Assembly (NCBI GenBank): GCA_903831305.1
Contig: CAIKXE010000004.1
Coordinates: 83,524 to 147,523 of the forward strand
DNA length: 64,000 nucleotides
From: an uncultured bacterium
Lineage (GTDB): Bacteria; Patescibacteriota; Minisyncoccia; Phycocordibacterales; GWA1-40-21
Reading direction: 5' to 3'
The notes beneath the pieces are model-generated. The model did no database searches and was not told the DNA's origin. It saw nothing but the letters and a program-made list of their open reading frames with translations. The translations under genes and the position numbers were made by a program. Shown here one piece after another: positions 1,247 through 63,029 of this stretch. The number at the start of each line of letters is the position of its first letter. Within the stretch, counting starts at the first letter, position 1.

Positions 1247-3725
1247 AACTTACTTCCGTTTCACTTCTATTATAAACATAATCAGTGGCGAGGATTTTTA
1301 GAGTATTTGTGGTACTGATGGCTTTTATGTTTGCTGGAGTAAAAGAAAAAAGGAAAGGAGAAACAGAGGAAGAGCCAATATAGGTACTGTTTAAATAAAA
1401 ATCTAATTTAGAAATCGGGAAAGTATTCTGACTCGTGGTTTGGATAATTATTTTTTGGTTTATGTTATAAGTTTGGTTTTCAACTGGGCTGACAATGATG
1501 ACCTTGGGGCTTCGGGCGGGGGTGTGAATATCATCTTTGGTGGCGGGCTTTATAGGTTGAGTTAGGCTCTGCGTTTTTAGCCATTGTTGTACTGGATATT
1601 CCCAGTGATCAAATTGCGGATCGTCACTAGGGTTTTCCGGTACCGCGCCCCAAGGGTCGGCTTTGTTTACCCAGTATAATATTTCGTGTACATCTGGAAT
1701 ATAGACTTCTACTTTGGTTTCATCCGGGGTAAATTCTGTGGCCAATTTGCCAGATATTTTATCAACCGTAAAAAAATCATAACCTTGCCAAACACCTCGG
1801 AAAACTGGTTTTATTTCCTTGCTCGTTGGGGTTGGAGCCGTAAAATATTCTTTAGAAAAAGAGGGTAGAGCTTCATCCATAAAAGCGCGCCACATGGGAG
1901 CAATAACCATGCCAGCCACCTTTTTATCAATAGAGGTATTGTCATTGTTTCCCGCCCAAGACCCTACTACCAAGTTTGGGGTATAACCAACAATCCAAAC
2001 GTCACGGAAGTCGTTTGTTGTACCAGTTTTAACCGCCACTTGTCGGTCGGAAAAATAAAGAGGGGACCGCGTGCCATAGGCGGGGGTTCTGGCTATGTTG
2101 TCTGACAGAATATCAGATATTTTATTAGCACTTTCCTCAGATAAAACTGCTTCCGGGTTATAAGTAGCTTGTTCTAGTATTTCACCGATTGAATTTTCTA
2201 CTTTCAGAATAGAGAGATAAGGGTTTCTTACGCCGGCATTGGCAAAGACCCCATAAGCACTAGTGAGTTCTAAGGGCGAGACTTCGCCACCTCCTAACAC
2301 CAATGTCAGACCATACTGATTAGCATCACCAAGGCTAGTAATACCCATGTTGCGAGCGGTGTCTAAAGAGTCCTTCACACCAGCGAGGTAGAGGGCTTTA
2401 ATGGATGGAATGTTTCGGCTTTGGGCTAGGGCATCGCGCAGAGTTATAGGCCCTAAATATTTGCTATCATAATTTTCCGGCATATAACAATCTTCAGGAT
2501 TGGTGTCACCTATTGGTTTGCCTTGAGCAGTACAGGTGGTTTGAAATTCGGTTGGTAGGTCAAAAAGAACGGTTTCCGGGGTATAACCCTTATTAAAGGC
2601 GGTGGCATAAACAAAGGGTTTAAAGGTAGAACCTGGTTGGCGGTGAGCAAGGGCGACATTAAAGTTTCCCTGTATTTCTTTGTCAAAGTAGTCACGAGAA
2701 CCCACCATCACTAGTATTTCACCGGTTTTGGGATCAATAGCTACTAAGGCCGCATTTTCCGCATTATAACTTATCTTATTTTCTAAAGCGTATTTTTTTA
2801 CCACCGCTTCGGCTTTGGCTTGCAAATCATAATTTAAGGTAGTTATTACTTTTAGGCCGTCCTCTCGAACTGCTTTTTCTCCATATTTATCCTCTAAATA
2901 TTGTCTGACATATTCCACAAAGTGGGCAGCTTTGATACCGTTTGATTGCTTTGGTTGAAAAATCACCACTTCAGCCTTAGCGGTTTTATACTCAACGTCG
3001 GTAATCATTTTGTTTTCTAATAGTCGGGACAAGACTAGATTTTTTCGGTTGTCTAACTTATCTTTATTGTTTCCATAGGGAGAATAATAGGTTGGGGCGT
3101 TTGGGATGGCGGCCAGATAGGCCGCTTCGGCTAGGGTAACTGAAGCTGCGTTTTTCTTAAAGAAGGTCTGAGCGGCTTCTTCTACTCCATAAATACTACC
3201 ACCATAAGGATTTTCGTTTAGGTAGACGGACAGTATTTCGTCCTTACTCATAATGTTCTCTAGTCTGATGGCAAGTACCCACTCTTTTATTTTTCTAGAA
3301 ATAGCATATTCAGAAGTTAGTAAAGAATTTTTTACAACTTGTTGAGTAATGGTAGAGCCCCCTCCGACCCCGCCCATAAGGTGGGCCAAAGTGGCGCGAA
3401 TGATGGCCTTGATCTCTATCCCACCATGGCTATAAAAACCGGTATCCTCAATGGCGATGGTGGCATTTTTAATATAAGGGGAGATTTTTTCAAAGGAGAC
3501 AACCTGTCTTTTAATGTCTTGATTGAGGTCAAAAAGTAGTATTTCTCCGGTTCGATCATAGATTTTAGTGCTTTGGGAGACCGTTCTTTCTTCAAAAGAA
3601 CGCAAGTCTGGCATTTTAAAGGTAGAAATCCAGAAAGTGATAATACCCAAGCCAATAAAGCCTAGGCTGGCCAAGTAAATAATAGCTTTTTTATAGTGTT
3701 TTTTGATATGTCTCATAATTATCAT
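1230..3725 (-). CDS. mrcA: class A penicillin-binding protein (transglycosylase + transpeptidase) with C-terminal extension
   Basis: N-terminal TM; GT51 region (RKIKEWVLAIRLE...ILSVYLNENPYGG...GVEEAAQTFF); transpeptidase region with STFKP. Confidence 0.85.
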   Translation of the reverse strand: MIIMRHIKKHYKKAIIYLASLGFIGLGIITFWISTFKMPDLRSFEERTVSQSTKIYDRTGEILLFDLNQDIKRQVVSFEKISPYIKNATIAIEDTGFYSHGGIEIKAIIRATLAHLMGGVGGGSTITQQVVKNSLLTSEYAISRKIKEWVLAIRLENIMSKDEILSVYLNENPYGGSIYGVEEAAQTFFKKNAASVTLAEAAYLAAIPNAPTYYSPYGNNKDKLDNRKNLVLSRLLENKMITDVEYKTAKAEVVIFQPKQSNGIKAAHFVEYVRQYLEDKYGEKAVREDGLKVITTLNYDLQAKAEAVVKKYALENKISYNAENAALVAIDPKTGEILVMVGSRDYFDKEIQGNFNVALAHRQPGSTFKPFVYATAFNKGYTPETVLFDLPTEFQTTCTAQGKPIGDTNPEDCYMPENYDSKYLGPITLRDALAQSRNIPSIKALYLAGVKDSLDTARNMGITSLGDANQYGLTLVLGGGEVSPLELTSAYGVFANAGVRNPYLSILKVENSIGEILEQATYNPEAVLSEESANKISDILSDNIARTPAYGTRSPLYFSDRQVAVKTGTTNDFRDVWIVGYTPNLVVGSWAGNNDNTSIDKKVAGMVIAPMWRAFMDEALPSFSKEYFTAPTPTSKEIKPVFRGVWQGYDFFTVDKISGKLATEFTPDETKVEVYIPDVHEILYWVNKADPWGAVPENPSDDPQFDHWEYPVQQWLKTQSLTQPIKPATKDDIHTPARSPKVIIVSPVENQTYNINQKIIIQTTSQNTFPISKLDFYLNSTYIGSSSVSPFLFSFTPANIKAISTTNTLKILATDYVYNRSETEVSFNVEE

Positions 3726-9954: not shown

Positions 9955-10158
9955 ATGAAGAAGGTCTTTGTTTGTCTGGTGATGGTCGGGGTTTGTTTGG
10001 CGGCTGGAGGGTGCTTGATGCCGTATGACCCTTATGCCGGAGGGGTCTATGTGGAACCCGTCCCTCGGCCTTACTACGGTCCGGTGGTCGTCGTTCCGCC
10101 ACCTCCCGTCTACTACCATCACCGGCCACCACCTCCGCGTTACTACCGCCATCGGTAG
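9955..10158 (+). CDS. small Pro/Tyr-rich lipoprotein (67 aa) in GC-rich island
   Basis: signal peptide plus lipobox LAAGGC; strong SD; G/C-ending codons unlike neighbours. Confidence 0.5.
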   Translation: MKKVFVCLVMVGVCLAAGGCLMPYDPYAGGVYVEPVPRPYYGPVVVVPPPPVYYHHRPPPPRYYRHR

Positions 10159-10174
10159 GAATGCGGTAGGGCCA

Positions 10175-10213
10175 GGGCGCGCTTTGTGGAAGCTGATACC
10201 TTCCCCGAGCGCG
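10175..10213 (+). terminator. GC-rich hairpin plus T run
   Basis: agggcgcgc...gagcgcgctctttttgttt. Confidence 0.5.
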
Positions 10214-10250
10214 CTCTTTTTGTTTATAAAATTTATGCTAAAGTATAAAT

Positions 10251-13211: not shown

Positions 13212-13973
13212 ATGTTTTATTTATTTTACGGAGCGGATACAGCCAAAGCCAGAAGCCAAGCCTATAAGGTGGTGGAGGCGGCCAAGAAAAAGCATGAGAC
13301 GGCGGAATTTTTTAAATTAGACAGTGAAAACTTTTCCGCAAGTAAGCTGGATGAGCTTTCCGCTAGCCAAGGACTTTTCTATTCTGCCTTTATTATTTTG
13401 GCTGATAAGTTATGTGATGATGAGGATACTTCAGAGATCTTATTAAAAAAATTAAAGGAACTAAAAGAGTCACCAAACTTTTTTATCTTTTTAGAGGGAG
13501 CGCTGAATAAAAAAGAGCTAGAAAAATTTGGAAAATATGCGGAGAAAGTGGAGGAATTTAACAAACCAGGGCGGAAGCTAAATAAAAAAGAGGCTTTGGC
13601 CGCTAAAGGCGAGAAAATAGACTTCTTTGAATTTGCTAATACGCTGGGAGAGAGAAATAAAAAGCTACTTTGGACTCTGTATCAGGATGCTTTGGCGGAG
13701 GAGGTGGCTTCTGAGGAGGTGCATGCCATGTTTTTTTGGCAGGTAAAGTCCATGCTCGCAGCGGTAAAGTCTAAAGATGCCACCGAGGCCGGGCTAAATC
13801 CTTATGTTTTTACCAAGTCTAAGGGTTATGCGCAAAATTATGGAACCACAGCCCTCGAAAGTGAGAAAAAATTGAAGGAGATGTCTACCAGGCTCTTTGA
13901 AATGTATCATGAGGCCCATCGGGGGAAGGCGGATTTTGCGGTGGCGCTAGAGAGATTTATTTTGGAGTTGTAA
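13212..13973 (+). CDS. DNA polymerase III delta subunit-like protein (HolA-like), uncertain
   Basis: N-terminal FYLFYGAD resembles HolA start; placed after polA; short for HolA. Confidence 0.3.
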   Translation: MFYLFYGADTAKARSQAYKVVEAAKKKHETAEFFKLDSENFSASKLDELSASQGLFYSAFIILADKLCDDEDTSEILLKKLKELKESPNFFIFLEGALNKKELEKFGKYAEKVEEFNKPGRKLNKKEALAAKGEKIDFFEFANTLGERNKKLLWTLYQDALAEEVASEEVHAMFFWQVKSMLAAVKSKDATEAGLNPYVFTKSKGYAQNYGTTALESEKKLKEMSTRLFEMYHEAHRGKADFAVALERFILEL

Positions 13974-14003
13974 ACCTATTTGATTTGAGCATATAAAGTT
14001 CTA

Positions 14004-14027
14004 GGGCCCCCGAGGTTGTCGGGGGCC
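14004..14027 (-). terminator. GC hairpin gggcccccga-caac-ctcgggggccc after Cys-rich ORF
   Basis: perfect 9-10 bp GC stem. Confidence 0.5.
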
Positions 14028-14043
14028 CTTGCTCATCTCTCGG

Positions 14044-14214
14044 TCACTCACCAAGGGGCGGGCACTTGCTTCTGTCGCAGATGCTGAAGGCACAGAGTCC
14101 TTCAGCCAATCCGCACATGATGCAGTAGCGCTCCTCTTCCTTTTTCTCACCGTTCTTGTACACGGTGATGTGCCCGTTTGCCCTGGCTTTTTTTCGGCCT
14201 TCTGCTTCGTCCAT
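14044..14214 (-). CDS. Cys-rich small protein (56 aa) in GC-rich island
   Basis: ATG preceded by AAGGGGG SD; 5 Cys (CxxC..CxxxxC..C); promoter-like TTGCAA-17-TATGGT at 14273-14301. Confidence 0.35.
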   Translation of the reverse strand: MDEAEGRKKARANGHITVYKNGEKKEEERYCIMCGLAEGLCAFSICDRSKCPPLGE

Positions 14215-14331
14215 TGGAACCCCCTTGTCCTTCCGGCTCTATTAGTGGCCGGTCTTTTACTGTTCTTTCTATACCATACTGTATTTCTGTCACTTTTGCA
14301 AGGAGTGAGGCTGGACAAACACTTGGCTGTT

Positions 14332-15060
14332 TTATATTTTTTTATAAAAAGTCTTAAATATTTGTTTTTGGAATTCCGCAATCCTCTTACTCTCTATAGT
14401 CATACAAGTCTCAGAATTGTAATCAATGAAGGCTACTTTGTCCCCATAAATTATTTCTGTGACATTGTGCTCAAAAGGACCAAAATCCGGCGGTAATACT
14501 TTGGTAAAGCGGTCCAAACTCGGTCTCTTGTTCTTAGCTGTTTGAACATTGGTGATCACCTCGCGTTGTAGCCTTTTTTTATCACGCATTTTTTGATAAA
14601 TTCTCGGTACATATTTATCTTTTTTTTCCTGACCATTTTTGTTTGAACTGTAACGGTAAAAGGTGTCACCTTTTTTTAGACTCCTGACCACATCATCAAA
14701 TATTCTTTTAGTACCATCCTTACCCTCTAGGAATCTGATCTTGGGTCTCTTCTCACTGCTGGCATAGGCATCTTCCAAGTCTGGCAATATCTCAAAGAAA
14801 TCAATTTTTAAATCATCAAACAAGGTTTCCAGCCGGTTGGGTGGCTCAGCACCAAAGACCACGCTTTTCAGTTTTTGGGTTTTGGTCACCAGTTTTTTAT
14901 CCAGGAGGGCGGGGAGAGCTTTATAAATGAGGGGGCGGTGGATAGAAGTTTTCTCGGATATCTCGGAAATATTTGAAGTCCCCATCTCAAGTAGCGCCAA
15001 ATAGATAGCGCTTTCATTCTTGGTCAGCCCTATTTTCTCCAAAATTTTGTTTTTGTCCAT
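14332..15060 (-). CDS. TrmB-family transcriptional regulator (paralog 0)
   Basis: N-terminal wHTH LTKNESAIYLALLEMG; full-length similarity to the three regulators in the ABC-transporter locus. Confidence 0.7.
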   Translation of the reverse strand: MDKNKILEKIGLTKNESAIYLALLEMGTSNISEISEKTSIHRPLIYKALPALLDKKLVTKTQKLKSVVFGAEPPNRLETLFDDLKIDFFEILPDLEDAYASSEKRPKIRFLEGKDGTKRIFDDVVRSLKKGDTFYRYSSNKNGQEKKDKYVPRIYQKMRDKKRLQREVITNVQTAKNKRPSLDRFTKVLPPDFGPFEHNVTEIIYGDKVAFIDYNSETCMTIESKRIAEFQKQIFKTFYKKI

Positions 15061-15372
15061 TTTTTATCTGTTTTAGTTATTAAAATTGTAACTCAATTTT
15101 ACAAATATATTATCATAATCATTAAGAAAGTTTAAGTTTTTCAAGGATTTATCCATATTATTGTATTGATTTGACGTGTTTGTAATATATTGTTACATCT
15201 TTTATGAGTAGAATAGGCCAGAGATTAACGGTTTGCGGGTAACGCCCGTATTTACATTACAGTACCGCCTCCAAAATAGGTGATGGCGAAGTAATTTTAA
15301 TATTATATTGTTCAGATAAGAGCTCCTTGAGATTTGAATCTAGGTTTAGAAAGGAAAAAAGGAGAAGGGCCA

Positions 15373-15599
15373 TGCGTTACGAAGGTGGTTTGACCTTGGA
15401 ACAGGCCAGGCGGGTGGAGGTGGGGGATGTGATCGTCCTGCACGACTACGGACCACTCAAAGTGATTGATGGGCACAAACTGCCCCCCTCAACGGTAAAT
15501 GGTGGGGATACCCCGCGGTCCATGGTGGTCAGGACGCAGGGTGGCCTCAGACGCCTCCTCATCGTCACGGCTCAGTCTGAAACCTTGTCCGTCTTCTGA
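15373..15599 (+). CDS. small hypothetical protein (~75 aa) in GC-rich island
   Basis: SD AAAGGAGAAGG then ATG; G/C-ending codons; terminator hairpin 15628-15652. Confidence 0.35.
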
Positions 15600-15627
15600 C
15601 TACTGACCTAGCATGTCACAAAACTGC

Positions 15628-15656
15628 CAGCCCGAGTAATCTCGGGCTTTCTCAAT
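15628..15656 (+). terminator. hairpin gcccgag-taat-ctcgggc plus T run
   Basis: read directly. Confidence 0.55.
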
Positions 15657-15672
15657 AAGTTTAAATATTTTG

Positions 15673-15745
15673 TCCGCCCAGTTGGAGTCGAACCAACGAC
15701 CTTCTCCTTAAAAGGGAGCTGCTCTACCAGCTGAGCTATGGGCGG
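15673..15745 (-). tRNA. tRNA-Lys (anticodon UUU)
   Basis: hand fold: 7-bp acceptor CCGCCCA/TGGGCGG, D arm GCTC/GAGC, loop CTTTTAA, T arm GTTGG-TTCGACT-CCAAC. Confidence 0.8.
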
Positions 15746-29681: not shown

Positions 29682-30494
29682 CTAATCTTTTAGTTGTTTA
29701 GAGTCCCAAGAGAGTTCAAAAATAGTTTTCATCATGTCATGTATGGCCTGATCCTCGATGATTACGCCAGTCTCATGATCCTTCTTGAAGTTAGTTATAG
29801 CTACTTTATTTGTTCCATATATTGTAATTTCTGAGGCGGAAGGAAATTTTCCCTTTTTTACAAATCGCATTTCTGGCCAAAACTTTTTATCCACATTACC
29901 ATAAAATATTTCTCTTGATTCTCTATCTTCTTTAGTATCTGGTAAAATAATGCGAGTGGTTATTCCGTTTTTGGTTTTTCTTTCTGTGTAGGATTTGAAT
30001 AAATCCTTATTGTCGGCATCAAGAAAGTTTGTAAACTCCTTACCGTTGGTGAAGTTTAACATTTCATATGGTTTCTGATTAGTGACCATATCGTCAAAGA
30101 TGTCAAAGAAGCCCTTTTTACCAGAATAATAAGTAATTTTTGCTTGGTCTTGGTTTGACGAGTAGATATTTTTTATATTTGGCAAGATTTCGGTTATCTC
30201 ACTAACAGATTCTTCTACTTGATGAAGTCTTGATTTAGTAAATTTTAAAACATTTTCCGGTTTTTCTATCTGGTAGTATATTTTATCCTTATTCATTATT
30301 TCATTGACGAGACCTTTTATGGATAGCGAGGTCAAAATATTATATGCGGTTGATCGCCGTATCCCTGCGTATTTGGCGATTCGGGAAGGGAAGGCTTCCC
30401 TCAGTTCCAGAACAGAAACGTATACCAGAGACTCTTTGTCAGTCAGGCCAGACTTCATTAGTTTTTTTATTAGCCCGATATTCTTTATTTCCAT
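29682..30494 (-). CDS. TrmB-family transcriptional regulator (paralog 1)
   Basis: wHTH LTDKESLVYVSVLELREAFPSRIAKYAGIRRSTAY; divergent to SBP gene. Confidence 0.7.
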   Translation of the reverse strand: MEIKNIGLIKKLMKSGLTDKESLVYVSVLELREAFPSRIAKYAGIRRSTAYNILTSLSIKGLVNEIMNKDKIYYQIEKPENVLKFTKSRLHQVEESVSEITEILPNIKNIYSSNQDQAKITYYSGKKGFFDIFDDMVTNQKPYEMLNFTNGKEFTNFLDADNKDLFKSYTERKTKNGITTRIILPDTKEDRESREIFYGNVDKKFWPEMRFVKKGKFPSASEITIYGTNKVAITNFKKDHETGVIIEDQAIHDMMKTIFELSWDSKQLKD

Positions 30495-31815: not shown

Positions 31816-32562
31816 TTAATCCTCCGTGGAGATATTCCACAAAATATTGAACAGGGCTAGGATGGTTTGGCTAAACTCGGGGCTCTCAATCACAAAGCCA
31901 AAATTTCCCCTTTCGGTAAAGATGATCGCTACCTTTTGCCCGATGACACAGATGGTATCTGGGATGAAGACCCCTTTAGGGGCATAGCGTATTTCCCGTA
32001 GCATTTCTGTGGCGCCACTGATAAGTGGTTCAGTGGGCTGATCCTCGCGCATACGGACATTTTTTACTTTGATCCTTTTGGCGATTCGGCGCCTGGCATA
32101 ATCCTTGAGGAAGTCATCACCGACGGTTTGCACCCGGGAAGCATTAGAGCTGACGTAATACATGGTTTTACTTCTGGTGGTCAGTGTTTCCTCAAAGATA
32201 TTTTGCATCCCTTTTTGCCCAAAATAATATTTCATCTTTGGTTTTTCTTGGTCCGGTGAGATCATAGCAGACAAAGCGGGGACTACTTGCTCAGCGTATT
32301 TTAAATTATTTTTAGCTTGGCGGATAAAGGCCGTAGGGGATTCTACTTTGTATTGCTTTTTCTTTTCTGTCAGCACCATGGTAATCAAGCCACGTCTGAT
32401 GAGCTCATCTAAGATAAGGTAACAAGTGGGCCTCTTTAGCCCGGATTTGGCCGCCACTTCCAGGACAGTAAAGGACACTAGCTCCAAGGCGGCCAGGTAT
32501 AGCCGGGCTTCCTTGTCACCGAGGCCTAATAGTTCTAATTGTTTCTCCTTTATCATTGCCAC
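31816..32562 (-). CDS. TrmB-family transcriptional regulator (paralog 2)
   Basis: wHTH GDKEARLYLAALELVSFTVLEVAAKSGLKRPTCY. Confidence 0.7.
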   Translation of the reverse strand: MAMIKEKQLELLGLGDKEARLYLAALELVSFTVLEVAAKSGLKRPTCYLILDELIRRGLITMVLTEKKKQYKVESPTAFIRQAKNNLKYAEQVVPALSAMISPDQEKPKMKYYFGQKGMQNIFEETLTTRSKTMYYVSSNASRVQTVGDDFLKDYARRRIAKRIKVKNVRMREDQPTEPLISGATEMLREIRYAPKGVFIPDTICVIGQKVAIIFTERGNFGFVIESPEFSQTILALFNILWNISTED

Positions 32563-33922: not shown

Positions 33923-33951
33923 TTGACAAATAGTCCATACTATGCTAGTGT
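33923..33951 (+). promoter_or_regulatory. sigma70-like promoter TTGACA-17-TAGTGT for GC-rich two-gene island
   Basis: hexamers read directly; SD AGGGAG before ATG 34023. Confidence 0.45.
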
Positions 33952-34022
33952 TATAGGTAGATCGATCCACCGTAATTCGCGTCCCATATCGGGGTGCGAC
34001 GGGGATCAAGGGAGATATCGGG

Positions 34023-34394
34023 ATGAAGAAGATCATTGGTATGCTGGTGGCTGTCGCGGTCGTGGCGTTGTTTGCCACGGGGTGCGCGTCGCTCACTCGG
34101 GATCCGAACCGTGGGCGGGGCGTGGAGTATTCGGAGAAGATCCTCCGGCCGACGGGCGACGTCCCGAAGATCGGGACCGTGATCCACGTGATCGCGATTC
34201 TGAATCGGGAGGTGGAGTCTCAGGTCATCTGGACCGAGATGCCCACTGACTACGCCATGTTCCCGAAAGTTCGGGTCATGACGGTCAAGGGGTTTCGCGC
34301 CTGGTCGGAGGGTGTGGGTGACGAGAGAGACTCGTTGTGCATGGTCCAGTACGATAGTGAGACCAGCATACGCCTCATCCTCATGAAGGACTGA
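34023..34394 (+). CDS. lipoprotein (123 aa) in GC-rich island
   Basis: signal peptide plus lipobox LFATGC; GC3-rich codons. Confidence 0.5.
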   Translation: MKKIIGMLVAVAVVALFATGCASLTRDPNRGRGVEYSEKILRPTGDVPKIGTVIHVIAILNREVESQVIWTEMPTDYAMFPKVRVMTVKGFRAWSEGVGDERDSLCMVQYDSETSIRLILMKD

Positions 34395-34564
34395 CCACCC
34401 GAGTTTGTGGGTTAACTCTGACAACTCATATGGTCCTGAGGCGCCATTGTAAAAAGCCTCACTGTCTCACGATGTGTGTCGTGACTGATAAGTCCAAAAG
34501 GACGAAACAGAAAAGTTCTTTGAGAGGTAAGTAAGCGGGGTAAATCCCCAGAAAGAGAGAGACA

Positions 34565-35404
34565 ATGAATACGGAAACGAAGAATGGTCGGCCGGTGAAG
34601 GTTCATTTGGCCATGAGGGACGGTCCAGTTCCCAGGTCGATCAGGCAAGTTCTGCCGATCGTCGGGGATGAGGCCTCCCACACTTACGTGGAGGTCCAAG
34701 CCGAGGCAGACCTCGTCATCTTTGACGAGGTGCGGGAGATCGAACGGGGATACGACAAGGAGAAATCCTACGCGTTCCTGCAGATGCCCGGAGTGAAGGT
34801 TCCGCGTCTGCCGGATAACTGCGAGGTCATCAACCCCCTGCAGATCTTGCCGGGCTTGATCGGGTCCATCAGTAAGGCTCGTTTGAGACTTCCCCCGCCC
34901 GCCATGTCGGCCGTGGAAGAAGAGGAAGAGACGACTGTGTCTTTACTCCCCGACGCCCTGCGTATCCTCGTCATTGAGGATACGCCGCGGCACCAGGCGA
35001 GTGCTAAGCAAGGTCTGGCCGGACACCGACTCATGGTAGCCACGGGGTACGAGGAAGCGATGGAGGTTCTCGGCAACGAGAAGTTCGACGTCGTCCTCAC
35101 GGACCTGCAACTACCCATGTCCTCGCGCACGCTCGGTACCGAAGCGTTCAAGCTCGGTCAGCTGGTGCCTTATGGCCTCATGCTCATGATCGAGGCGGCG
35201 CACCAGGGGGCGAGACATGTGGCGGTCGTCACAGACATGAACCATCACGCGGACTGGCTATCGGCAGCATTCGATCACTTCCGCTACTCGGTGAAAATCG
35301 AGGGAGCGGTCGTGCAGATGATGCACGCGCCGATGAAGCGGGACGCGTCTGGTGAGTCCGTCAAGGACTGGGTCGCCGCCCTTGACCGGCTCCTGAAAGA
35401 GTAG
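34565..35404 (+). CDS. protein with C-terminal CheY-like receiver-type domain (279 aa), GC-rich island
   Basis: LRILVIEDT...DVVLTDLQLPM pattern resembles REC domain; no obvious output domain. Confidence 0.45.
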   Translation: MNTETKNGRPVKVHLAMRDGPVPRSIRQVLPIVGDEASHTYVEVQAEADLVIFDEVREIERGYDKEKSYAFLQMPGVKVPRLPDNCEVINPLQILPGLIGSISKARLRLPPPAMSAVEEEEETTVSLLPDALRILVIEDTPRHQASAKQGLAGHRLMVATGYEEAMEVLGNEKFDVVLTDLQLPMSSRTLGTEAFKLGQLVPYGLMLMIEAAHQGARHVAVVTDMNHHADWLSAAFDHFRYSVKIEGAVVQMMHAPMKRDASGESVKDWVAALDRLLKE

Positions 35405-35470
35405 CTCTTAACCTAAAGCGCGGATATAATCCGCCAAGTGACCTGACATGTTACAGACAACTGTCAACGG

Positions 35471-35505
35471 GCCCGGACTGCAACACGCAGTTCCGGGCCT
35501 TTAAA
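35471..35505 (+). terminator. hairpin ggcccggactgc...gcagttccgggcc plus T run
   Basis: read directly. Confidence 0.55.
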
Positions 35506-36526: not shown

Positions 36527-36697
36527 ATGAAAAAGTGGCTTTGGATTGCTCTGATTATCGTGGTGGTGGCTATTATCGGCGCGGGGATGAATAAGGGGAA
36601 GGATACTACAAATATCAAAGTAGGGGCTACCCTCTCTCTTACGGGCAGTTTAGCCTCAATTGGTAAATCAGAAATGATTGCTAGATTGGCAATTTAG
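36527..36697 (+). pseudogene. truncated substrate-binding protein remnant (56 codons: TM anchor + first beta-strand KVGATLSLTGSLASIG)
   Basis: aligns with N-termini of SBP-1/2/3 then stops. Confidence 0.5.
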
Positions 36698-37521: not shown

Positions 37522-38262
37522 TTATTTCTCCTCAGGGATCATCTCCCACATCACTTCAAATATTTGTTTTATGGCATCATGGATTTTTGAACTTTCAATT
37601 ATTATTCCCAGGCGGTCATCATAGTTTAAAATAGCCGTTTTATTTTTACCATACAAGAGTATCTCATTCTCCAGATTAAACTTTTTAGAATCCAAGGTCC
37701 GAGATTTGCGTAACTGCTCGCTATTTTTGAGAATATACGGTTTTAGCTCCTGGCTGTCTGGTAGGATAGCGCGGATCCAGATGTTTTTCTTTTGCCTTTC
37801 CGGAATATAATATTTTTCCTGAAAGGATTCACTACCAACTGAAGAGGAAGCGGAGAACCAGGATTGGATCTCTTGGTTTGGAGTAGAAAGTGTTTCTCGG
37901 TAGGCCTCCTTTATGCCATCTTCACCTTCAAAATACCGGACAGACGGTTTTTTATCAATCGCTGATCCCAGGGATAAAAGGCTGGCCATATTTTGTTCCA
38001 GTTCTTTTTTATTTTCATCCAGGATCGCTAGAATCACTTTAGGGCTCTGAGCATTATAATATTTCAAATTCCGCCTTTCTGATTGACTGACCAATCCCTT
38101 TTTTATCAAGTTTTCAAGCTCCATATAAGTAGTGGGCCTTTTTATGCCGGACTTTTGGGCAATGCGGGAAGCGGTGGTTTCTCCAAGCTCATAACTGGCT
38201 AGGTAAACTGAGGCCTCCTTAGGGGAGAGGCCAGCCTTAATCAAGGTGTCTAAATGGTTCAT
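37522..38262 (-). CDS. TrmB-family transcriptional regulator (paralog 3)
   Basis: wHTH LSPKEASVYLASYELGETTASRIAQKSGIKRPTTY. Confidence 0.7.
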   Translation of the reverse strand: MNHLDTLIKAGLSPKEASVYLASYELGETTASRIAQKSGIKRPTTYMELENLIKKGLVSQSERRNLKYYNAQSPKVILAILDENKKELEQNMASLLSLGSAIDKKPSVRYFEGEDGIKEAYRETLSTPNQEIQSWFSASSSVGSESFQEKYYIPERQKKNIWIRAILPDSQELKPYILKNSEQLRKSRTLDSKKFNLENEILLYGKNKTAILNYDDRLGIIIESSKIHDAIKQIFEVMWEMIPEEK

Positions 38263-42696: not shown

Positions 42697-43377
42697 GTGA
42701 TGGGAAAGCGTGGCCCAAAACCAAAATATTTAGTTTCAACTGTTTGGCGATTTGGCCTCGCTTACGCGGTTGGTTTATTGGCCTCTGATGGATGCCTTTC
42801 TTGTGATGGCAGGCATATTGATTTAACTTCGATAGACATAGAGCAATTAGAAAATTTTAACAAGGCACTAGGATTAAATTTTGAAATCGGGTTCAAGGAT
42901 AGAAATTCTAAAAGTAATAATACTGCATACAGGGTTCAAATTTCAAGTGTTTTGTTCTATGAGTTTCTAGAAGGAATCGGTTTTACAAAAAAGAAGTCCC
43001 TGACAATAAAGGAGATAAATTTACCAGATAAGTATTTTGCAGATTTTCTTAGAGGACTATTTGATGGGGATGGGTGTAGCTATTCCTATTGGGACAAGAG
43101 ATGGAGGTCTAGTTTTATGTTTTATGTTGGATTTTGTTCTGGAAGCACTGCCTTTGTTAGTTGGTTACAAGAAAAAATTAAAAAACAAGTAAAGGTAAAA
43201 GGACATATTACTAAATCAAAAAGAAAAAACTTTTATTATCAGTTAAAGTATTCAAAATATGAAGCTGTAAAACTGGTCGGTTTTTTATATAAAAATGGTA
43301 ATGTTATTAAATTAAATAGAAAGTACTTGAAAATAATGAAAACTTTAGGTACTATGAGGAAGTTAGGTGAGATTTAG
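42697..43377 (+). CDS. free-standing double-motif LAGLIDADG homing endonuclease
   Basis: two LAGLIDADG motifs (LLASDGCLS and GLFDGDGCS) ~100 aa apart; ends 1 nt before tRNA-Leu. Confidence 0.75.
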   Translation: MMGKRGPKPKYLVSTVWRFGLAYAVGLLASDGCLSCDGRHIDLTSIDIEQLENFNKALGLNFEIGFKDRNSKSNNTAYRVQISSVLFYEFLEGIGFTKKKSLTIKEINLPDKYFADFLRGLFDGDGCSYSYWDKRWRSSFMFYVGFCSGSTAFVSWLQEKIKKQVKVKGHITKSKRKNFYYQLKYSKYEAVKLVGFLYKNGNVIKLNRKYLKIMKTLGTMRKLGEI

Positions 43378-43462
43378 GCCTGGGTGGCGAAACTGGCTAG
43401 ACGCACTACCTTGAGGTGGTAGCGGGAGCAATCCTATGGAGGTTCAAATCCTCTCCCAGGCA
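43378..43462 (+). tRNA. tRNA-Leu (anticodon GAG)
   Basis: acceptor GCCTGGG/CCCAGGC, anticodon stem CTACC/GGTAG loop TTGAGGT, long variable arm, T arm GAGGTTCAAATCCTC. Confidence 0.8.
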
Positions 43463-43466
43463 CAAT

Positions 43467-61624: not shown

Positions 61625-61794
61625 GACCCTTACAGGGTCAGTACCCGTGTTTGGATTTTTTATTCTCCTTCGAAAGACTCAGGATCTAAAAAATCTCAAA
61701 CAGGCTTCGCTTCCGCCCCGTAAGCAAAATCATTTGCTTACTCATCTCCACATAACAAAAATCGCCCATCAGAATGAGCGGGTTTTTGTACATG

Positions 61795-62208
61795 TGGAGA
61801 TGGGCGGAATCGAACCGCCGTGCATAAGAGTATCCTAATTGCTTCTACAAAGTCTAGTTAATTTATCTTCACTTGCGTGAATTTAAGTCTGTGATTTCAA
61901 AAAGAACAAAATGATCACAAACCGATCCTCTAATTTCTTTCCGTACCGAGAAAATTACGGAATATAATCTAATTTTATGTCACCCAGACCAGTTTATTAG
62001 ATATGGACTGATTGGATGCCGCTTAGGTTTGTTTTATGAAACGTAAGCGAAAGCAAAGTTGTTGGCCGCAAAATATGGGGACACAACAGACTTTACTCTT
62101 GAAACAATGCTATTAGCAGTTGTTTGTTTATTAACATTTTAGGTGTGTATAATAATGCACCACTTTGCGCAATCAAGGACAGATCAGATGTCTAGGCCGA
62201 TCATCCCC
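61795..62208 (-). ncRNA. ssrA: tmRNA (ssrA), ~414 nt
   Basis: 5' GGGGATG pairs with 3' CATCTCC-A; 3' T arm GGCGG-TTCGATT-CCGCC; smpB 0.4 kb away. Confidence 0.6.
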
Positions 62209-62579: not shown

Positions 62580-63029
62580 TTATTCATTTTTCAAAGTGCG
62601 GCGTATATCACGATCTGTCTCGCGTTTCTTGATAGTCTCGCGTTTATCAAAGCTCTTTTTACCCTTGGCAATACCGAGTTCTAGCTTGAGCTTTCTACCT
62701 GTATTATACACCGCTATAGCCACAATTGTCAAGCCTTTCTTGTTTTCAATCTCAGTCAGCTGTTTGATCTCTTTTTTGGTCAATAAAATCTTTCGATTTC
62801 GGAGAGGGTCGTAATCAGCAGGAGTATTAGTGGCCTGATAGGCGGGGATATTGGCGCCAATGAGGAAGGCTTCTCCACCGCGGACCGTGACATAAGCGCC
62901 ATCGAGCTGACCCTTTTTCCCCCGCACACTCTTTACCTCCAAGCCTAAAAGCTCTAGCCCGGCGGTAAATTTGTCCGTGATTTCATAGTTAAAGTATGCT
63001 TTTTTATTTTGTAGTAAACTTTCACTCAT
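62580..63029 (-). CDS. smpB: SsrA-binding protein SmpB
   Basis: KAYFNYEI..., C-terminal basic tail; canonical SmpB. Confidence 0.92.
   Translation of the reverse strand: MSESLLQNKKAYFNYEITDKFTAGLELLGLEVKSVRGKKGQLDGAYVTVRGGEAFLIGANIPAYQATNTPADYDPLRNRKILLTKKEIKQLTEIENKKGLTIVAIAVYNTGRKLKLELGIAKGKKSFDKRETIKKRETDRDIRRTLKNE

Follow-up and report, generated by a model that had tools for sequence, protein, structure and literature searches.

A 64-kb stretch of DNA from an uncultured member of the Patescibacteriota (contig CAIKXE010000004.1; the whole stretch is referred to below as the window, and coordinates are positions in it) raises the question of whether a small, unusually GC-rich cassette on its minus strand (14003–14301) contains a real gene and, if so, what kind of product the gene would specify. 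The cassette forms a local spike of 58% GC, as compared with about 41% for the window. An earlier note had described it as an independently transcribed unit encoding a 56-amino acid (aa), cysteine-rich peptide, which could be a small metal-binding protein or the precursor of a ribosomally synthesised and post-translationally modified peptide (RiPP). An open reading frame (ORF) alone proves little here, because every frame is open across this stretch of the window. We found that the 56-aa frame, hereafter ORF56, is a real protein-coding gene under purifying selection, and that the 126-aa and 155-aa ORFs overlapping it are artefacts. Judging from sequence comparisons, we regard it as rather probable that the cassette is a self-contained gene for a lineage-restricted small cytoplasmic protein, likely one that binds zinc or an iron-sulfur (Fe-S) cluster.

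ORF56 is a protein-coding gene

ORF56 (14044–14214 on the minus strand, stop included) encodes the Cys-rich protein MDEAEGRKKARANGHITVYKNGEKKEEERYCIMCGLAEGLCAFSICDRSKCPPLGE. It was compared among four species-level variants, namely the window, L004–L006 (protein P0002), L122 (P0124), and L135/L136 (P0125), in which the product is 55–56 aa long and the start, stop, and length are conserved. The ratio of nonsynonymous to synonymous divergence (omega) was 0.136 between the window and L004, at a synonymous divergence (dS) of 1.37, and was 0.21 between the window and L122 and 0.15 between L004 and L122. The dS values of these three pairs (1.4–1.75) are saturated and resemble those of the neighbouring TrmB and holA genes (0.9–1.6), for which we obtained a dS of 0.89 and an omega of 0.013 (TrmB, window versus L004), and a dS of 1.63 and an omega of 0.027 (holA, window versus L005).

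Among the six frames, ORF56 had the lowest omega. The overlapping 126-aa frame showed an omega of about 1 and carries an internal stop in L004, and the antisense 155-aa frame is stop-free with an omega of 1.18, in agreement with the view of the earlier note that both are out-of-frame artefacts. A third antisense frame gave an omega of 0.24 but is broken by four stops. Since the 56-aa frame is the only one that is both open and low in omega, ORF56 is a genuine protein-coding gene, at exactly the position and length originally described and with a frame-specific omega of 0.14–0.21. When 43 substitutions were placed at random, the observed amino-acid identity was retained in only 5 of 100,000 trials (p = 5e-5), and all five Cys residues survived in 1.7% of the trials (p = 0.017). 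ORF56 was left uncalled in one assembly of the same species.

The relatives of ORF56 are few. A protein search recovered one diverged relative of 56 aa with 71% identity (P0002, at loci L004–L006), a DNA pattern encoding nothing but the Cys scaffold retrieved the third variant, L122, catalogued as P0124, from metagenome contigs, and a three-sequence profile yielded the fourth, P0125, in L135 and L136. The remaining 39 of the 40 metagenome matches to the scaffold pattern were unrelated Cys-rich or low-complexity sequences. Among about 15 billion proteins, the family amounts to four clusters of a single member each, the best label being "hypothetical protein". An initial scan of a genome collection with the ORF56 peptide gave no match, the viral contig collection contained no copy of the cassette, and a literature search on small cysteine-rich proteins of Patescibacteria returned no papers. 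Neither the peptide nor cassette DNA was present at 80 PolA-anchored loci of related Patescibacteria (Paceibacteria/Taylorbacteria-type metagenome-assembled genomes; PolA 56–82% identical), whereas PolA of the carriers is at least 87% identical to that of the window. On this distribution, ORF56 is confined to about one genus-level clade.

Several other matches were rejected. P0003, a HMMER match, was spurious, being an 1874-aa repeat protein that lacks the Cys pattern; a weak match in L009 was antisense noise within a 129-aa gene; and a second 56-aa call in L135 was unrelated to ORF56. No paralog of ORF56 was found within the window. A 56-aa call at 36527–36697 (+), considered as a paralog, is an unrelated fragment that comprises a signal peptide and the start of a substrate-binding protein, and probably represents either a duplicate that has been truncated or a pseudogene.

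Promoter, leader, and 3′ hairpin of the cassette

Upstream of ORF56, the minus strand can be read directly as a −35 hexamer TTGCAA (14296–14301), a −10 hexamer TATGGT (14273–14278), and a Shine-Dalgarno sequence (SD) AAGGGGG (14220–14226), the last located 5 nt ahead of the ATG at 14214. The −35 hexamer is TTGCAA in three of the four species and TTGCAC in L122. The −10 hexamer of the other species is TATGGT, TATAAT, or TATCTT, so that the form TATnnT occurs in all four and the perfect TATAAT in one. The two hexamers are 17 nt apart in every species, the spacer varying in its letters and constant in its length. In the other species, the SD is either AAGGAGG or ACGGAGG, giving the general form A[A/C]GG[A/G]GG with a 5-nt spacing in all four. 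Conservation across species supports a sigma-70-type promoter, from which the start site would lie about 7 nt past the −10 hexamer.

The 5′ untranslated leader predicted from this start site is about 52 nt long (14215–14266, minus strand), and the distance from the −10 hexamer to the ATG is 53–58 nt in the four species. We found that the leader core (about 50 nt) showed no substitution and a single 1-nt indel between the window and L004, although the synonymous sites are saturated between them. This invariance cannot be taken as a mark of very close genomes, which is ruled out by the dS of TrmB and holA given above. The leader contains a stem-loop at 14233–14252 (minus strand), with the stem CCGGC(C)/(G)GCCGG and a loop that includes UAAUA (RNAfold dG −8.5 kcal/mol); its form in the window is CCGGCC-ACUAAUAGA-GCCGG, and its 3′ end lies 6 nt ahead of the SD. 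Each of the four species has a hairpin in this place, with 6 nt between its 3′ end and the SD, and every loop contains AAUA. The stems themselves are of three different kinds, namely CCGGC/GCCGG, CUG..CUGC/GCAG.CAG, and CUGGU.GGU/GCCACCAG.

Downstream of the ORF, a GC-rich stem-loop spans 14003–14029 (minus strand). Its arms, 14003–14013 and 14019–14029, are 100% complementary and form a perfect 11-bp stem with a 5-nt loop (dG −25 kcal/mol), confirming the perfect GC hairpin reported by the earlier note. The hairpin is present in all four species. The changes in L004 are restricted to the loop, L135 and L122 covary at inner-stem pairs, and the outer GGCC/GGCC pairs are constant. The leader hairpin and the 3′ hairpin are structural elements, beyond plain sequence conservation.

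In the comparison of the window with L004, conservation opens at the −35 hexamer and closes just past the 3′ hairpin, the spacers on either side being scrambled. The promoter, the hairpin-bearing leader, and the SD of the earlier note are thus located where it had placed them and are conserved in four species, and the conserved unit boundaries support its view of a small coding cassette that is transcribed independently. The window promoter by itself matches the sigma-70 consensus at 8 of 12 positions, too few for the consensus scan to list it, and the evidence for it is phylogenetic. The 3′ stem is not followed by a proper U-tract, the tail UAGAACUUUAUAU being weak and interrupted; the tail is CAACUUUUAU in L135, L122 contains no U-run, and the terminator scan did not list the window hairpin.

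With this anatomy, the TTGCAA-17-TATGGT promoter would drive a monocistronic transcript of about 270 nt. The leader stem-loop would most likely shield the 5′ end or tune the initiation of translation, and the 11-bp GC hairpin, located between the stops of ORF56 and of the convergent holA-like gene, would end both transcripts and stabilise the 3′ end, likely as a shared terminator. In these respects, the cassette resembles ordinary bacterial genes with mRNA stabilisers and terminators, sharing with them a 5′ hairpin near the start and a GC-rich 3′ hairpin past the stop, both conserved in structure. It differs from ordinary intrinsic terminators by its weak, interrupted U-tract, and from ordinary 5′ stabiliser hairpins by a loop that retains AAUA, alternatively a putative binding site. 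When 14233–14252 is read on the plus strand, the leader hairpin followed by TCTTTTACTGTTCTTTCT also scores as a terminator. In all four species, a sense-strand (A)GAAA(U) ahead of the leader hairpin gives rise to a short antisense U-run, and the leader hairpin might additionally halt read-through from holA.

Candidate metal binding by the ORF56 protein

The four-species alignment contains 28 invariant residues, including H15, C31, C34, C41, C46, and C51, with invariant positions at N13–Y19, E26, E28–L36, E38, C41, A42, C46–R48, C51, P52, and G55. The Cys residues are arranged in the invariant scaffold C31-x2-C34-G-x5-C41-x4-C46-D-R-x2-C51-P. This scaffold is preceded by the conserved NGHITVYK...ERY segment, which is weakly predicted to form a beta-hairpin, and the charged N-terminus, comprising the first 12 residues, is the most variable portion of the protein. 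Both AlphaFold2 models, which are of low confidence, hint at a beta-hairpin leading into the CxxC.

The closest likeness is to 4Fe-4S ferredoxins, which make up most of the top PDB profile matches of ORF56. The best of these was the polyferredoxin FwdF (PDB 5t5i chain F; E = 0.043), and NuoI/NDUFS8 was matched at E of about 7. In both the ferredoxins and ORF56, a beta-strand leads into E-R-[YF]-C-I-x-C-G, with another Cys seven positions past the second one. In the PDB alignment, ...ERYCIMCGL-x-E-x-x-CA of ORF56 falls onto ...ERFCIYCGACERSCP, placing C31, C34, G35, and C41 on the C-x2-C-x2-C-x3-C-P motif. ORF56 also possesses a distal C51-P52, and its size is similar to the approximately 55 aa of clostridial ferredoxins. 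It differs from ferredoxins in that it has a single, incomplete motif, a Cys-free N-terminal half, and no match to a Pfam Fer4-type model. We consider this likeness to be a resemblance that falls short of membership.

A second comparison is with rubredoxins and zinc ribbons, in which Fe or Zn is bound by two CxxC(G) knuckles. The Y-C-x-x-C-G of ORF56, at the end of the predicted beta-hairpin, resembles one such classic knuckle. In contrast to these proteins, ORF56 has no second CxxC; its remaining Cys residues are spaced x6, x4, and x4 (C-x4-C-x4-C), and no family model was matched.

Several observations weigh against binding of a metal. ORF56 has no match in Pfam, NCBIfam, PHROGs, or PADLOC, and with none of the four members of the family did Pfam give a match at E ≤ 10. 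The ferredoxin match is borderline and is inflated by the many motif repeats in FwdF; where the third ferredoxin Cys would stand, the family varies (A, Q, E, or I), and Ala takes the place of the motif Pro. An odd number of Cys residues suits no canonical site. The AlphaFold2 models reached a pLDDT of 59.7 with a two-sequence alignment and 53.9 with a four-sequence alignment, values at which fold and ligands are guesswork, and the family comprises just four sequences, two of which are mutually close. The proposal of the earlier note that the peptide could be a small metal-binding protein finds some backing in the invariant H15 and five Cys residues and in the borderline ferredoxin likeness, while the family models gave no match and the structure models were unusable.

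Taken together, metal binding by ORF56 seems plausible. The product would be a 56-residue cytoplasmic protein composed of a charged N-terminus, a beta-hairpin-like segment, and the Cys scaffold, and may bind a single metal centre, for which Zn(II) and a small Fe-S cluster are the candidates. Two ligands would come from the C31xxC34 knuckle and the rest from two among C41, C46, and C51. Such a protein may serve as a small accessory factor that acts in redox reactions or binds metal or protein, within one narrow Paceibacteria-type clade.

Genomic setting, competing explanations, and significance

The only constant neighbour of ORF56 is a holA-like gene (13212–13973, plus strand; DNA polymerase III delta, C-terminal domain; Pfam DNA_pol3_delta_C, E = 1.4e-4), which is adjacent to and convergent with ORF56 in the window, L004/L005, L122, and L135/L136. 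Since holA is convergent, this constant linkage implies no operon. Upstream on the same strand lies a gene for a TrmB-domain helix-turn-helix regulator (14332–15060, minus strand; Pfam TrmB, E = 6.4e-14). The earlier note placed the cassette immediately after this gene and on the same strand, which is correct, but a functional tie between them is not borne out. Of the four carriers, L122 and L135 lack TrmB upstream of the cassette, and four TrmB ortholog loci with 84–89% identity, set in other neighbourhoods, had no cassette downstream (three by DNA search and one by gene table). For these reasons, the adjacency of TrmB is incidental.

The segment between holA and a tRNA-Lys(UUU) gene (15672–15745, minus strand; ARAGORN), which forms its far edge, is a variable hotspot (13974–15671), being empty or carrying unrelated cargo in relatives. 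The ancestral order in relatives is polA-holA-tRNA-Lys-DoxX. The gap is empty in L043; in L010 it contains a 407-aa protein and in L011 a membrane protein of 406 aa. In the window, it is filled by ORF56, TrmB, and a 75-aa orphan, and in L135 by ORF56 alone. The genes upstream of ORF56 in L122 are one for a 122-aa protein and a small one of the GIY-YIG-like type. L016 and L135 have the tRNA-Lys in inverted orientation with respect to holA. In the window, holA and polA adjoin each other; in L135, a gene for a 212-aa protein lacking a family match (1980–2618, minus strand) is inserted between them. The 75-aa orphan (15372–15599, plus strand; GC 0.59, GC content at third codon positions (GC3) 0.70) has no family match and is divergent from TrmB at a distance of about 310 nt. 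Other TrmB orthologs, including those of L089 and L090, likewise have a small divergent gene of 78–99 aa about 295 nt upstream, one of which (L088) is weakly similar to the 75-aa orphan (E = 0.008). Further TrmB-domain paralogs are encoded at 29682–30494, 31816–32562, and 37522–38262, all on the minus strand, among Peripla_BP_6 and ABC transporter genes; two paralogs found by tblastn are about 26–28% identical to the 14332–15060 copy.

This setting raises the possibility that the cassette is horizontally acquired or selfish cargo of a tRNA-Lys-linked islet, such as a phage-derived anti-defence factor or toxin, and that its GC content reflects a foreign origin. The differing cargo of the holA/tRNA-Lys segment among relatives, the very narrow taxonomic range of ORF56, and an atypical GC3, which is shared by two nearby small orphans and by a GC-rich island at 33.9–35.5 kb, are in accordance with such an origin. 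However, ORF56 matched nothing in PHROGs or PADLOC, no viral contig carried a copy, and neither convincing att-like repeats nor an integrase was found in the islet. Its GC3 shows no drift toward the genome value, and the cassette occupies the same holA-adjacent position in four lineages. As the synonymous sites are saturated between these lineages, the shared position argues for long vertical inheritance. To judge from its residues, the peptide is highly charged, soluble-looking, and devoid of a hydrophobic segment, unlike the membrane-active toxins of type I toxin-antitoxin systems, and the antisense ORF is unconstrained. We therefore regard an origin as mobile cargo as unlikely, and prefer a vertically inherited gene for a small protein.

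A different possibility is that the folded, GC-rich transcript acts as a structured regulatory or dual-function RNA, with the ORF being secondary. The GC3 of ORF56 is 0.667 in the window and 0.64–0.67 in all four lineages, as compared with 0.414 ± 0.062 (maximum 0.55) for 45 long ORFs and 0.46–0.53 for ribosomal-protein genes, a difference that bears out the compositional oddity seen in the earlier note. Because synonymous sites are saturated between the lineages, this high GC3 is maintained, more than inherited. The fold is more stable than expected (z = −5.1), none of 200 shuffles being equally stable, and the four-species consensus fold of the ORF gave z = −3.9 against column-shuffled alignments, with a structure conservation index of 0.59 versus 0.43 ± 0.07. 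Four base pairs within this consensus fold show compensatory changes, and, as described above, no substitution separates the window from L004 in the leader core. These data suggest that selection for RNA stability may act on top of selection on the protein, and selection on mRNA structure or stability is likely but unproven.

Other observations oppose a primary role of the RNA. Conservation of RNA structure inside the ORF is only moderate: a two-species test of pair preservation was not significant (P of about 0.10), and the stability of the L122 ORF does not exceed that of shuffled sequences (z = −0.6). Rfam 15 yielded no gathering-threshold match at the locus and only chance-level matches at E ≤ 10. 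The protein signal is frame-specific, with an omega of 0.14–0.21, indicating that the ORF is not incidental, and a strong SD is conserved at ideal spacing. A structured non-coding RNA, a reading prompted by the GC spike and the z-score of −5.1, was rejected as the main reading on the empty Rfam result and the frame-specific coding signal. A pure non-coding RNA is effectively excluded, and a separate small RNA function beside the ORF56 protein is a minority possibility; for a regulatory or dual-function RNA to which the ORF is secondary, we see little probability. A combined form, in which ORF56 would represent an undescribed mini-metalloprotein family (a one-motif, ferredoxin-like relic with a non-canonical C-x2-C...C-x4-C-x4-C-P arrangement) together with an mRNA fold under selection, and thus a dual-function RNA/protein gene, also seems improbable. 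The small protein itself, encoded by a GC-rich and structured mRNA, remains our favored product of the cassette.

The RiPP precursor suggested by the earlier note, with a charged N-terminal leader, a Cys-rich C-terminal core of 26 residues, and a maturase (e.g., a radical SAM enzyme) elsewhere in the genome, is very unlikely: the small size, the Cys residues grouped in the C-terminal half as in SCIFF-type Cys-rich precursors, and the cassette's own promoter and terminator would suit it, but no radical SAM, YcaO, lanthionine synthetase, peptidase-transporter, or similar gene was found in the 64-kb window or beside the other three copies (neighbours holA, tRNA-Lys, the 122-aa protein, and the small GIY-YIG-like protein), so that none of the four contexts has an adjoining radical SAM maturase of the SCIFF type, NCBIfam showed no similarity, holA is the only constant neighbour, and the first 12 residues are the most variable part of ORF56, whereas RiPP leaders usually hold a conserved recognition motif and Patescibacterial genomes of about 1 Mb rarely carry RiPP pathways.

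Elsewhere in the window, a GC-rich 67-aa orphan lacking a family match (9955–10158, plus strand; GC3 0.63) is flanked by tsaE and the gene for a T2SSE ATPase. Its product begins with a signal of lipoprotein-like type, MKKVFVCLVMVGVCLAAGGC, and its tail is rich in Pro and Tyr; a GC hairpin accompanies the gene at about 10168–10215. A foreign-looking island of 1.5 kb (33948–35500; GC 0.58–0.60), located among branched-chain-type ABC transporter genes, encodes proteins of 123 aa and 279 aa with GC3 values of 0.82 and 0.76, respectively. A LAGLIDADG-type homing-endonuclease-like ORF of 226 aa (42697–43377, plus strand) lies just downstream of rplS, and its end abuts the start of tRNA-Leu(GAG) (43378–43463). 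A tmRNA (61792–62208, minus strand; Rfam 98 bits), which ARAGORN did not report, is close to smpB (62580–63029, minus strand) and contains an insertion just past the segment aligned to the tag reading frame of the model.

ORF56 is narrowly distributed and of a familiar kind, a gene for a small Cys-rich protein; it gives no pointer to a new mechanism and opens no long-standing question. It adds a well-supported, lineage-restricted small protein gene, of a type that is often missed, to what is known of uncultivated Patescibacteria, and it shows that four metagenomic variants are enough to validate a promoter, leader hairpin, SD, ORF, and likely terminator. That a GC-rich, structured mRNA is maintained in an AT-rich genome is a minor puzzle of synonymous-site selection. 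Should the protein indeed bind zinc or an Fe-S cluster, it would contribute a minimal scaffold for metal binding from a group whose redox metabolism is very reduced.

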